Shown in pieces: positions 1 through 6,624 of a stretch of 64,000 nt of DNA. The stretch is taken from the NCBI RefSeq assembly GCF_055900595.2, contig NZ_CM148325.1; one strand, 5' to 3'. Position numbers and translations under genes: made by a program. Each line of letters starts with the position of its first letter. Position 1 is the stretch's first letter. The notes below the pieces were generated by a model. The model was not told the origin of the DNA. It was given only the letters and a program-made list of their open reading frames with translations, and searched no databases.

Positions 1-29
1 GCGACTCACACTGCTTCTGGCAGCCTGGT

Positions 30-602
30 TTAGTCATTATGACTGGCATGGATTAACGTCAACCCCGGATGATGCCACAAACTGGCTGGCGTGACGGTTT
101 TACGCTCCCACGGAATAGAACCTAAGAACCAGAATTTCCAGAAAGTGAGTTTTGCATTTGGATTGCTGTTTAGCAGTTCTCCAAACGTCTCTATTTCACC
201 CACCGGAATACATAACGCCTCTTTATAAATATCAAAAACGAATTTTGAACAGAACTGGCGGGAAGATTCGTATTTAAAACCGGTGTGGTAGAACTTATGC
301 AACCGGGCAGGGACCTTTTCGACAAGAGCAAGTTTCTGCTCTGCGGTTAAACCTCCTGCCAGGCGGCGAACACCGTAGCGTTGCTCGGTCGACCGTTCAA
401 TAAATCGTGACAAAGTTGTGATTGTGGAGAGCGGAACTCGACTCTCCGCAACCAGGTAATCATCACCGTCATGTCCGATGATTATCCCCACATGGTTGCT
501 CCAGCATTTCGAGGCTGCAGAGATTTGCCCAAACAGGCGAGCACCGATGCAGGTAAAAACAATATCACCGGTTTCATATTTAGCTGGGTAATTTATTTTC
601 AC
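30..602 (-). CDS. yebB: YebB-like protein (conserved core gene divergent from ruvA); apparent GTG start at 600-602
   Basis: 190-aa ORF; position divergent from ruvA matches core synteny; protein recalled as YebB-like from memory, not verified. Confidence 0.65.
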
Positions 603-695
603 TATATCAATCCATTATTTATATATAAAACAGCATCTATCTTTCGTGATGGTAAAGCATTAGCATTGTATTGTAATAATGACAAGGAATGTTTT

Positions 696-1520
696 ATGCG
701 GTTATTTATTAATGTGATAATGATAGTTTCGATCAGTCAATGCGTGAATGTATTTGCTCAAGATAATGTCATTCGCTATCCCTGGCGATATGGACGTATT
801 TCTTTAAATGAGAATAATGAGTTTGTGCCTCAAATTATTCATATGCGTGATGATATCTACGGCGTGGGTGAAGTTGGTGCAAGCCTTAACGATGCGAGAA
901 TGGCGCAAAGTGGTGTCACCGTGAGGCTTAGCGTTATACAGCAGGGGCAGGTGGTGAATGCTTTACTGGATTTCTACAATAGCAATAATCAACCTGCTTA
1001 TATATTTGAAGGCGGTTTATTGTCCTGCAATAAAGCCTTTGACATCACAACAAACAACATTGTCCTTGATGGGATGTGTGGAATTTATGATGGGGTCGAT
1101 GGCTGGCAAGTTATTCCTGCGGGTGAGCATTATAAAGAATCGTTTTCACTCACTCAGGCTTTTGAATTCTTGCCGGGAAAACATCATTATAAAATTAATG
1201 CCGGAGGTTTTATCATCAGAGTCGGGGATGATATTTTTGCAAGAGAAGATGCCGAAAGCATTCTTTTTGATTTGATTAACTGGCGATATGGCTATGTGCT
1301 AAAAAGTTATGAAAGGGTGTCAAAGGGGGATTTGATGGCAGGATATTATGCTCTGTATGAATACTCAGGCGCTGACATAATTGATGAGTATGATATTTAC
1401 TCAAACCAGGTGTCGATTGATCTTAATGGTGACGAGTTAGCACATACGGAGTCCTATCAGTGGCGAATTGATAGCGGAATGATCCCGGAAAAATTCAGCG
1501 TTCAGGGACTCGCTGAATGA
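696..1520 (+). CDS. hypothetical secreted protein, 274 aa, with predicted Sec signal peptide (MRLFINVIMIVSISQCVNVFA / QDNV)
   Basis: ATG at 696 preceded by AAGGA (684-688); N-terminus has n/h/c signal-peptide architecture with V at -3 and A at -1; the track ORF 471-1520 is trimmed because 471-602 overlaps yebB. Confidence 0.55.
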   Translation: MRLFINVIMIVSISQCVNVFAQDNVIRYPWRYGRISLNENNEFVPQIIHMRDDIYGVGEVGASLNDARMAQSGVTVRLSVIQQGQVVNALLDFYNSNNQPAYIFEGGLLSCNKAFDITTNNIVLDGMCGIYDGVDGWQVIPAGEHYKESFSLTQAFEFLPGKHHYKINAGGFIIRVGDDIFAREDAESILFDLINWRYGYVLKSYERVSKGDLMAGYYALYEYSGADIIDEYDIYSNQVSIDLNGDELAHTESYQWRIDSGMIPEKFSVQGLAE

Positions 1521-1557: not shown

Positions 1558-2127
1558 ATGAATTTATCAAGCGTATTCAATCAGCTTTTAATCTCATTAG
1601 CTCTTGCCGGGACGTTGATATCAAGCAGCTATCTCATGGAAGCTCACTACCCGCGTTTCAGGAAGCCAATTGCGTTCTTTTACTTCTTCTTAGCAATTTA
1701 TACCAGTTATGCTGCCGTTCTGGAGTATGAGTACCACCGCACTAGCTTGACTACGCTCGCAAAAGTTTCTTCGGTTCGTTATACCAGTAATTTTGAGCGT
1801 AGCGCCTCGCACTCCTGCAATTTACTGCGGGGAGGAAGGATTGATTGCACGGGGCTGTATGCCTATGACCTGACCTGGCAGATTGACGGTAAGACCTGGA
1901 ATTTGCATGTTGAGGACAAGCGTATAAAACCAGGATTCACCATGTGCGTGAAGGTTGTAAAAGATCGCCCCGCCATCGGGAAATCCTGTGAAAACGCGTT
2001 TTTCAATGTCAGCCCTTTGCCGATTCTGATAGCTATATGGGCAATCAGCGCATTTATATTTGCGGTCTTACTCCTTCACAGACTAAAAAAATGCCGCAAA
2101 TGGAAGCACGCCAGCAAGGGGCGTTGA
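1558..2127 (+). CDS. hypothetical membrane protein, 189 aa, about three hydrophobic segments and a Cys-containing loop of about 90 aa
   Basis: ATG at 1558 with AGAGG 5 nt upstream (alternative TTG at 1537); hydrophobic stretches LLISLALAGTLISS, IAFFYFFLAIYTSYAAVL, LPILIAIWAISAFIFAVLLL; 37 nt downstream of ORF1, same strand. Confidence 0.5.
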   Translation: MNLSSVFNQLLISLALAGTLISSSYLMEAHYPRFRKPIAFFYFFLAIYTSYAAVLEYEYHRTSLTTLAKVSSVRYTSNFERSASHSCNLLRGGRIDCTGLYAYDLTWQIDGKTWNLHVEDKRIKPGFTMCVKVVKDRPAIGKSCENAFFNVSPLPILIAIWAISAFIFAVLLLHRLKKCRKWKHASKGR

Positions 2128-2229: not shown

Positions 2230-2249
2230 CGCTGGATATCTATCCAGCA
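2230..2249. promoter_or_regulatory. LexA (SOS) box of the ruvAB promoter, CTGGATATCTATCCAG
   Basis: CTG-N10-CAG palindrome at 2232-2247, 50 nt upstream of ruvA start. Confidence 0.8.
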
Positions 2250-2298
2250 TTTTTTTATCATACAGCATTATCTTTGATTCATTACGCAGGAGCGTCAT

Positions 2299-5691: not shown

Positions 5692-6624
5692 ATGTTACAT
5701 AAAAAAACGCTTCTTTTCGCAGCATTATCCGCCGCTCTCTGGGGGGGTGCAACACAGGCCGCAGATGCTGCCGTTGTCGCTTCGCTTAAACCCGTTGGGT
5801 TCATCGCTTCTGCCATTGCTGATGGGGTAACAGAAACGGAGGTTTTACTACCTGACGGCGCTTCAGAACATGATTATTCACTGCGTCCATCAGATGTAAA
5901 ACGCTTACAGAACGCGGACTTAGTCGTTTGGGTTGGCCCGGAGATGGAAGCGTTCATGCAAAAACCGGTAAGTAAATTACCTGAAGCGAAACAGGTAACG
6001 ATTGCGCAGCTAGAGAATGTGAAACCGCTGCTGATGAAAAGTATTCACGGCGATGATGATGATCACGACCACGCGGAAAAAAGTGACGAAGATCACCATC
6101 ACGGCGATTTCAACATGCATCTTTGGCTTTCCCCAGAGATAGCGCGGGCTACAGCGGTTGCAATCCATGGAAAATTAGTGGAACTTATGCCGCAAAGTCG
6201 AGCCAAACTTGACGCCAACCTGAAGGATTTTGAGGCACAATTAGCCTCAACCGAAAAGCAGGTTGGTAACGAGCTCGCGCCGCTCAAGGGGAAAGGTTAT
6301 TTCGTTTTTCACGATGCTTACGGCTATTTCGAAAAACAGTTCGGACTGACACCGCTTGGTCATTTTACCGTTAACCCTGAGATTCAACCTGGCGCGCAGC
6401 GTTTACATGAAATAAGAACACAGTTGGTTGAGCAAAAAGCAACCTGCGTTTTTGCTGAGCCACAGTTCAGGCCAGCGGTCGTTGAGAGCGTCGCACGAGG
6501 GACATCCGTTCGTATGGGAACGTTGGATCCCCTGGGGACGAATATCAAACTGGGTAAAACAAGCTATTCAGAATTCCTGAATCAATTAGCCAACCAGTAT
6601 GCGAGCTGCCTGAAAGGAGATTAA
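5692..6624 (+). CDS. znuA: periplasmic zinc-binding protein ZnuA (start at MLHKKTLLF; track ORF 5566-6624 is an upstream extension)
   Basis: 310 aa with signal peptide and His/Asp-rich loop [21 protein letters not shown]. Confidence 0.93.

Follow-up and report, generated by a model that had tools for sequence, protein, structure and literature searches.

Short AT-rich gaps between divergent genes are commonplace in Escherichia coli, and overlapping as well as face-to-face divergent promoters reportedly feature in the classification drawn up by Beck and Warren in 1988. The closest known system to the one considered here is the 70-nt spacer between yebB and yobI of E. coli K-12, which was identified by gSELEX as a binding site of the RpoD holoenzyme in vitro (Shimada et al. 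2014, PMC3946193). Predicted promoters in this spacer read CTGAAA-17-TATTAC for yebB and TTGTCA-15-TACAAA for yobI (PMC3946193). A second type of divergent arrangement is the symmetric bidirectional promoter, in which reciprocal -11A/-7T pairs form an A-N3-T core that serves both strands and gives rise to divergent transcription start sites (TSSs) 18 bp apart (PMC10268837).

Here we report on the region upstream of yebB in a 64-kb stretch of DNA (the window), the left end of which corresponds to the ruv/znu neighbourhood of E. coli in reversed orientation relative to K-12. In this sequence yebB faces away from an open reading frame, ORF1, that is missing from K-12-type genomes, and the two are separated by a spacer at positions 603–695. 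With a probability of roughly 0.6 we regard this spacer as a native and evolutionarily conserved two-way control region of the divergent yebB (minus strand)/ORF1 (plus strand) pair, lying within a rare allele that is exchanged by homologous recombination. The element itself is of an ordinary kind, probably a divergent promoter region that is compact and overlapping, although the allele that carries it was previously undescribed. Taken alone it is routine; the main value of the analysis lies in correcting an account of the locus as an insertion and the annotations that go with it.

Anatomy of the yebB–ORF1 interval

The gene order at the left end of the window is yebB (30–602, minus strand), two unnamed ORFs, ruvA (2299), ruvB, znuB, znuC and znuA. 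The yebB gene encodes a 190-aa permuted papain-like hydrolase of the YebB family; the protein matches the YebB equivalog model of NCBIfam (NF008547) over its full length with an E-value of 7e-111 and 368.7 bits against a cut-off of 227, which makes it a member of that family, and it matches the Peptidase_C92 family of Pfam (PF05708) with an E-value of 2e-46 and 158.4 bits against a cut-off of 27. The GTG start codon in the ORF list (600–602) is the same aligned codon as the RefSeq start of yebB in the K-12 strain J53, and the VKINYP sequence at the YebB N-terminus has been kept in all lineages examined. ORF1 (696–1520, plus strand) encodes 274 aa with an N-terminus that reads like a signal peptide; it belongs to an orphan family and its G+C content (40.8%) lies below the window average of 50.1%. 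Its ATG at 696 is preceded by the Shine–Dalgarno (SD) sequence AAGGA at 684–688, 7 nt 5' of the start, and is the annotated start in strain R32_14_1F, where the gap to yebB is likewise 93 nt. The second gene of the variable segment, ORF2 of type A (1558–2127, plus strand), encodes 189 aa, and its hydrophobic segments suggest a membrane protein.

The yebB and ORF1 genes lie on opposite strands and their start codons, both of which are supported comparatively, border a single short non-coding spacer. A preliminary description of this DNA had proposed a 93-nt AT-rich gap between the yebB GTG (600–602) and the ORF1 ATG (696), and the coordinates, the composition and the comparative starts all bear this out: the spacer has a G+C content of 25.8% compared to 50.1% for the whole window, and just 0.33% of the 93-nt windows in the 64 kb are as AT-rich.

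The products of the variable segment have offered few functional clues. Neither ORF1 nor ORF2 has a match in Pfam, NCBIfam, PADLOC or the sequences of the PDB. ORF1 has 41 distant representatives of similar length that are also without a Pfam family, and the genomic context of the best of these relatives was uninformative. An AlphaFold model of ORF1 built from 5 sequences was unusable (pLDDT 30); a model built from 33 sequences reached a pLDDT of 75 and is composed of beta-sandwich domains. Foldseek searches with the latter model returned generic beta-sandwich matches only, including the AsaP1 propeptide and the Bacillus subtilis protease inhibitor IPI with TM-scores of about 0.3, and such predicted likenesses are too weak to assign a function and should be taken as a lead only.

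Candidate promoters in the spacer

Over long distances the spacer is better conserved than the beginning of the gene next to it. In the most distant ORF1-bearing lineages it retains 66–73% identity, compared to 54–64% for the first 60 nt of ORF1. We defined invariant positions across 8 sequences that include the ORF1-less loci of Salmonella and Citrobacter amalonaticus and represent only about six independent lineages. The best candidate for a yebB promoter that emerges from this comparison is the -10 element TACAAT (670–665, minus strand), in which T670, A669 and T665 (positions -12, -11 and -7) are invariant in all 8 sequences. At this place C. amalonaticus has TATAAT and Salmonella has TGgTATAAT, and neither of them has ORF1; the distance of the element from the yebB start codon is 57–63 nt in all genomes. 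It is immediately followed by the conserved block GCTAAT (664–659, minus strand) in the discriminator and +1 region, of which the G and the TAA are invariant in the 8 sequences, and the composite motif TA[CT]A[AG]TG[CT]TAA occurs exclusively upstream of yebB in the loci searched for it and in the 64-kb window. The predicted TSS would lie near 658–661 and the leader would be about 55 nt long, with a probable SD region AATGGA (616–611, minus strand; 8–13 nt 5' of the GTG) that is also invariant in the 8 sequences. TACAAT has no recognisable -35 element at a distance of 16–18 nt and its scores against position weight matrices (PWMs) are modest.

A third conserved block, CTTGTCATT (686–678, minus strand), lies 9–17 nt 5' of the -10 element at -28 to -20 and not at -35 spacing. 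Its CTTG (686–683) and ATT (680–678) are invariant, the ORF1-less Salmonella and Citrobacter sequences included, and it overlaps the ORF1 SD sequence on the opposite strand (AAGGA, 684–688). It may act as an operator or as a second -35 element; the PWM alternative on the yebB strand at this block is TTGTCA-18-AATGCT. Part of the spacer conservation could reflect the ORF1 SD sequence or an operator rather than a promoter.

The plus strand is less clear-cut. In the Escherichia sequences the candidate -10 elements for ORF1 (TATATA, TATAAA and CATTGT) are weak or lack the T at -7; the PWM candidate is TTCACT-18-TATATA, and its Pseudocitrobacter equivalent is TTCACy-19-TATAAT. This candidate lies where part of the ruvA promoter region recurs as a direct but imperfect repeat. 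The right copy (2232–2275, plus strand) contains the ruvA SOS box CTGGATATCTATCCAG (2232–2247), the promoter TGGATA-17-TATCAT (2233–2261) and the start of the leader, and the same promoter hexamers have been given for ruvA of K-12 (PMC3946193). The left copy (604–644, plus strand) is related to the right half of the SOS box, the -10 element and the early leader (2236–2275). The repeat search aligned 604–636 with 2236–2268 (33 nt, 79% identity), and a gapped local alignment of the two copies scored 40 compared to 15.3 +/- 2.4 for shuffled sequences, a score that none of 1000 shuffles reached. The signal is weaker in Escherichia sp. E1V33 (3/1000) and in L009 (22/1000), an E. coli contig whose ORF1 allele differs from that of the window, and by the same shuffle test it is absent from Pseudocitrobacter, the metagenomic lineage L006, K-12, Salmonella, Citrobacter and Klebsiella.

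A LexA SOS box needs CTG-N10-CAG. Where ruvA has CTGGATATCTATCCAG the left copy reads CACTATATCAATCCAT, with both LexA triplets broken (CAC...CAT), and it does not qualify as a LexA-regulated SOS promoter. With both triplets broken, a -35 equivalent that runs over the yebB start codon and no T at -7 in the -10 equivalent, the left copy is unlikely to be under LexA control. The left copy is a candidate for the ORF1 promoter, with a TSS predicted near 635, although it could also be a product of lineage-specific gene conversion that has no function, or an old duplication whose copies gene conversion has kept alike.

Across positions 400–2400 there are 10 sigma-70-like consensus matches compared to 5.8 +/- 2.8 in shuffled sequences, which is not clearly above chance, and an Rfam scan of the same interval returned no match at E <= 1. 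Inspection of the spacer by eye revealed no sigma-54, sigma-32 or sigma-E motifs, and a sigma-28 reading of TAAAGCAT-N11-TGTAATAA was set aside, as it lacks the CGA core and would put the TSS within the SD sequence. Two further repeats were rejected as probable chance occurrences: an 8-nt inverted repeat (625–632/690–697) that is not conserved in E1V33, and a 20-nt repeat (657–676/2136–2155) that is not collinear with the main one.

The promoter and TSS positions and the regulatory coupling described in this section are predictions drawn from sequence; the published E. coli TSS data consulted yielded no TSS for yebB or yobI in either allele. Within 93 nt, two sigma-70 promoters, each with a leader bearing an SD sequence, cannot be accommodated without overlapping the leader, SD sequence or start codon of the partner gene. 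In our model yebB would be transcribed from a sigma-70 promoter with the -10 element TACAAT (670–665); transcription would begin near 658, and the leader, about 55 nt long, would carry AATGGA. A polymerase bound at this -10 element would cover positions from about 638 to 713, that is, the SD sequence, the ATG and the first codons of ORF1. For ORF1 there are two options. The first is the ruvA-like element by the yebB start, with a -10 element at 622–629 and a TSS near 635, which would place the two promoters face-to-face and give their transcripts about 20 nt of complementary 5' ends. The second is the top-strand face of a symmetric core (cATTGt, 664–669), with a TSS near 676, 18 bp from that of yebB. 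With either option the two genes would compete for or share the polymerase and any regulator bound to the spacer. The idea of the preliminary description that yebB and the neighbouring genes share promoter sequence is therefore very likely correct in a physical sense, since 93 nt forces overlap.

If the second option held alone, one symmetric bidirectional promoter like those reported by Warman et al. (2021) would drive both genes back-to-back; it would be centred on 664–670, with TSSs at about 676 for ORF1 (20-nt leader) and about 658 for yebB, 18 bp apart, and the ruvA-like repeat would be merely part of the yebB leader. The reciprocal -11A/-7T pair that this demands (A665 and T669) is invariant in all ORF1-bearing lineages, and the 20-nt ORF1 leader would still include the ORF1 SD sequence. 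However, the top-strand hexamer CATTGT matches TATAAT at just 3 of 6 positions, and the yebB-strand -10 element alone would account for the conserved A and T just as well; we consider a promoter of this kind unlikely, if conceivable, at this locus.

Distinctly less likely is the notion that yebB is mainly transcribed from a sigma-70-like site inside ORF1, TTCACG-17-TATCAT (748–720, minus strand; ORF1 codons 9–18), with a TSS near 713. The leader would then be about 110 nt long and run antisense to the start of ORF1, and the conserved blocks of the spacer would be operator or leader elements. Among the sites on the yebB strand this one fits the consensus best (9/12 in the scan), and its PWM score of 10.5 bits in the window rises to 11.4 bits in E1V33 and L009, where the -10 element reads TATAAT. 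On the other hand it is weak in Pseudocitrobacter (4.9 bits) and absent in L006, its conservation is partly forced by the signal-peptide codons of ORF1, and it is impossible in Salmonella and Citrobacter, which have no ORF1 and have nevertheless kept the TAyAAT block. The site may serve as an alternative or additional yebB promoter or as an antisense promoter.

Allele boundaries and distribution of the ORF1-bearing segment

In K-12-type genomes yebB is followed by the 70-nt spacer, the 21-codon gene yobI and ruvA, so that yobI takes the place of ORF1. The identity between the window and K-12 amounts to 95.2% at 61–290 and falls to 69.6% at 291–602. Sliding identity locates a mosaic breakpoint at 285–300, about codon 104 of yebB, with about 95% identity to its left and about 70% to its right, and a maximum chi-square analysis places it after position 290 (mismatches 11/230 versus 95/312; Fisher p 2.5e-15; 0/1000 permutations). 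At the protein level YebB is 77% identical to its K-12 counterpart over aa 2–100 and 98% over aa 101–180. Upstream of the GTG only about 10–35 nt can be aligned to K-12 (TCAaTCCATT), homology being lost past about 636, and a local alignment of the yebB-proximal 48 nt of the two allele types was not significant (323/1000 shuffles reached the score). The block TAyAAT-GCTAAT is not recognisable in K-12. The divergent tract ends at about 2221; from about 2222, a point 10 nt short of the ruvA SOS box, homology to K-12 is abruptly restored. The variable unit (about 291–2221) thus takes in the 5' half of yebB together with the spacer, ORF1 and ORF2, and it occupies the place of a different yebB 5' half and yobI. 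Allele boundaries that fall inside yebB and just 5' of the ruvA SOS box fit homologous recombination between old alleles and not the insertion of a mobile block.

Among complete E. coli genomes 5425 of 5426 match the region, and the ORF1-ORF2 allele is present in just 19 of the 5426 with an identity of 95.3–98.0%; in one carrier genome ORF1 is split by a frameshift. The ORF1 family is very small, with six clusters among 5.8 billion proteins, and in a set of 100,044 species representatives it was found in only 2, namely Escherichia sp. E1V33 and Pseudocitrobacter vendiensis. The ORF1-bearing loci that we compared comprise the metagenomic lineage (L006), three Pseudocitrobacter loci (L007, L008 and L011), the E. 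coli contig (L009) and E1V33 (L010). Amino acid identities of ORF1 to the window are 47% for L006, 71% for Pseudocitrobacter, 88% for L009 and 91% for E1V33, and every homologue with visible context resides in the ruvC–ruvA slot, points away from yebB and is separated from it by 85–93 nt. The yebB 5' half of the window type is 81–85% identical to that of Pseudocitrobacter, the same level as ruvA and ruvB (83–84%); the 5' half of K-12 yebB is only 69–73% identical to all other lineages compared. Escherichia marmotae carries a YebB of the K-12 type, and both allele classes are therefore old. Taking these comparisons together with the conserved -10 block, the window most likely keeps a widespread yebB promoter and K-12 represents the odd allele that is without it; the upstream block shared with Salmonella, Citrobacter and Pseudocitrobacter is carried by the rare allele rather than by the K-12 allele.

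The cargo of the slot varies. ORF1 is accompanied by ORF2 of type A in the window, the 19 E. coli genomes and L006, and by ORF2 of type B in E1V33 and L009; Pseudocitrobacter has ORF1 alone, Salmonella and C. amalonaticus have ORF2B without ORF1, Superficieibacter has ORF2A and a relic of ORF2B, and the slot is empty in a Klebsiella species and in Pseudescherichia vulneris. A search for ORF1 remnants in the ORF1-less loci of Salmonella, Citrobacter, Klebsiella and K-12 found none. An ancestral arrangement would imply many losses, and the rarity of ORF1 among species representatives speaks against it; the data fit repeated horizontal exchange via the conserved flanks just as well.

In a more specific reading, the rare allele would have kept an older architecture with ORF1 under the control of a decayed ruvA SOS promoter duplicate in the yebB leader, and K-12 would carry a later replacement in which yobI, with its 21 codons, arose at the position of the ORF1 start. 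There are weak hints in this direction: the distance between a shared ATGCTA motif and the SD sequence with its ATG is 27 nt in K-12 and 29 nt in the window, and the encoded proteins begin with MYIFIT and MRLFIN. The yobI region of K-12 has no significant similarity to positions 603–2221 of the window or to the equivalent regions of other lineages, and tblastn searches with YobI returned no match. We hold this scenario to be very doubtful; should it hold, the locus would offer a natural comparison, before and after, of how a small stress protein gene was born and a promoter recycled.

The preliminary description had considered the case of an insertion directly against the 5' end of yebB, with the native yebB promoter replaced or shared, and proposed a comparison with strains lacking it. 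The upstream region of K-12-type strains is indeed not identical to that of the window, and this comparison by itself left the idea standing. Taken to its conclusion, the idea is that ORF1 and ORF2 were recently acquired flush against the yebB start, the spacer being a chimeric junction at which the native promoter was destroyed and a foreign one put in its place. K-12-type strains do lack ORF1-ORF2 and are unrelated upstream of yebB past the first 10–35 nt, the G+C contents of ORF1 (40.8%) and the spacer (25.8%) are below the 50.1% of the window, and the allele is rare in E. coli. Nevertheless, the divergence from K-12 begins inside yebB and not at its start, the same arrangement and a conserved spacer recur in other genera, and the candidate yebB -10 block is common to Salmonella and C. 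amalonaticus, which have no ORF1. Searches of the allele for signs of a mobile element found no insertion sequence (IS), integrase, transposase or short target duplication, plasmid and phage searches with the segment were without a match, and no repeat flanks the cargo other than the imperfect 41-nt ruvA promoter copy. The conserved spacer, its invariant blocks and the breakpoint within yebB largely refute a recent flush insertion, which we judge highly improbable; of the original idea the sharing of promoter sequence very likely holds, the flush junction does not, and the native promoter appears to have been kept. The exchange of old alleles through conserved flanks explains the mosaic of the slot better: the supposed insertion is one of two old alleles of the yebB–ruvA interval, swapped via breakpoints in yebB and at the ruvA SOS box.

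That there is no intergenic region, the true ORF1 starting at ATG 471 (349 aa) and overlapping a shorter yebB, is exceedingly improbable: the longest open frame containing ORF1 has its first ATG at 471, the left limit of the interval in the preliminary description, the frame is open from there in Escherichia alleles and PGAP uses this model in Z0117EC0005, 2013C-4282 and MFDS1022581, but the extension is interrupted by stop codons in Pseudocitrobacter and the more distant L006 and is therefore not coding, the longest ORF1 frame of P. vendiensis begins at the conserved ATG, the SD and signal-peptide-like sequences are located at 696 and not at 471, the long model imposes an ATT start on yebB that deletes the conserved YebB N-terminus, and R32_14_1F is annotated with the short form. 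The comparative data argue for an ORF1 of 274 aa and for the GTG as the yebB start. PGAP annotates most carriers with the 349-aa ORF1 and a yebB trimmed to the ATT start, which means that most RefSeq annotations of this allele over-extend ORF1 and truncate yebB.

Comparison with described systems

The mosaic structure of the locus resembles segmental allelic replacement at conserved slots, in that different cargo occupies the ruvC-yebB-[cargo]-ruvA slot and the breakpoints lie in conserved flanks. In contrast to such systems the segment is very small (about 1.9 kb) and has no mobility genes, and one of its breakpoints falls within a coding gene and generates a mosaic YebB.

The left repeat copy is about 79–80% identical to the corresponding part of the ruvAB SOS promoter, with which it shares its orientation, and it precedes the real copy by 1632 nt. 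It differs from that promoter in having CAC and CAT instead of CTG and CAG, in the overlap of its -35 equivalent with the yebB start codon and in its -10 equivalent, where the ruvA hexamer TATCAT aligns with TATAAA (624–629), which is without the T at -7. The locus is suited to asking whether a copied SOS promoter that has no LexA box still fires.

With overlapping and symmetric divergent promoters the spacer has in common that the two genes are too close for two independent back-to-back promoters, and its conserved A-N3-T core (665–669) could serve both strands. Unlike in the described symmetric promoters the top-strand hexamer is weak and the TSSs are predicted only, and the second, ruvA-like candidate would turn the pair into a face-to-face arrangement.

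The K-12 yebB/yobI spacer is the nearest counterpart, as it occupies the same locus and is a very short AT-rich gap between yebB and a divergent gene. The predicted yobI -35 element of K-12 (TTGTCA) adjoins the yebB GTG and the predicted yebB -35 element (CTGAAA) overlaps the yobI SD sequence (CAGGAGG); with the -35 elements of divergent promoters placed against the start or SD sequence of the partner, compact overlap is therefore normal at this locus. The two spacers differ in that their sequences are unrelated past about 10–35 nt by the yebB start, and in that the partner gene encodes a small protein of 21 aa in K-12 and an ORF of 274 aa with a signal-peptide-like N-terminus in the window. 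The carrier strains provide natural material on how two overlapping promoters share 93 nt.

Cargo genes of the ruvC-yebB-ruvA slot

The second of the genes lying between yebB and ruvA belongs to one of two unrelated families, designated type A and type B. Type A is carried by the window (ORF2, 1558-2127), by the distant metagenomic lineage L006 and by Superficieibacter, whilst type B is found in Escherichia sp. E1V33 (L010, 4854-5540), the E. coli contig L009 with its different ORF1 allele, Salmonella and C. amalonaticus; in Superficieibacter type B persists as a relic only. The intervals concerned in the other comparison loci are L013 2600-3274, L012 2605-3300 and L017 1051-2144. The spread of two unrelated families over these genomes marks the ruvC-yebB-[cargo]-ruvA slot, on sequence comparison, as a mosaic hot spot across the Enterobacteriaceae.

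ORF1 and ORF2 are flanked by an imperfect direct repeat of ~41 nt (604-644 and 2236-2275). The right copy comprises the SOS box, promoter and leader of ruvA; the left copy resides within the yebB leader and its LexA half-sites are broken. Significant similarity between the two copies is confined to Escherichia alleles.

On the left flank, a PstS-family (PBP_like_2) gene is inserted between ruvC and yebB in strain Z0117EC0005 and in L006 (2753-4246); the corresponding interval in the comparison locus L001 spans 1444-2952. Window positions 1-45, which extend past the 3' end of the shorter 190-aa yebB, are identical to Z0117EC0005, and the source genome of the window probably also harbours the PstS-family gene immediately outside the left edge.

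Gene models and signals at the yebB-ORF1 boundary

In the RefSeq/PGAP models of most carriers ORF1 is a 349-aa protein starting at the ATG equivalent to window position 471, and yebB, read from a non-canonical start codon, is cut to 177-187 aa, resulting in an opposite-strand overlap of the two genes (window 471-695; L001 3030-4520; L004 2701-4221; L005). Strain R32_14_1F is the sole carrier annotated with a 200-aa yebB (GTG start) and a 274-aa ORF1. Judged from the aligned sequences, the long ORF1 model is over-extended, because stop codons interrupt the upstream extension in Pseudocitrobacter and L006.

The predicted yebB leader includes a five-codon mini-ORF on the minus strand (ATG CTG TTT TAT ATA TAA, 619-636), and in K-12 a 12-codon upstream ORF runs from the aligned ATGCT and stops 5 nt short of the GTG of yebB. 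The window mini-ORF probably arose by chance, since it is not kept in Pseudocitrobacter. A strong sigma-70-like site on the minus strand (TTCACG-17-TATCAT, 720-748) lies in the ORF1 signal-peptide codons, directed toward yebB, and its E1V33 and L009 counterparts have TATAAT in place of TATCAT; the site could serve either antisense transcription or, as a second promoter, yebB.

Possible gene decay at the locus

In strain MFDS1022581 (L005, 3172-4220) a frameshift has left ORF1 annotated as two CDS and an IS621 element directly follows ruvB; some strains may thus be losing ORF1 to decay. Directly downstream of its intact ORF1 homologue, L006 contains two short stretches (5833-5981) similar to the C-terminus of ORF1, apparently remnants of a partial duplication. 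In the K-12-type strain 2015C-4498 (L019, 1381-3303) an IS91-family element truncates yebB, and the annotation of ruvA carries a frameshift; yebB seems to be dispensable.

Relatives and predicted fold of ORF1

Profile searches recovered ~40 distant ORF1 relatives of 270-315 aa that fall outside any Pfam family, and an AlphaFold model built using them reached a pLDDT of 75. For this model Foldseek returned weak matches (TM ~0.3) to the AsaP1 propeptide and to the beta-sandwich of the B. subtilis intracellular protease inhibitor; a relationship of this kind would be intriguing given the adjoining papain-like hydrolase gene.
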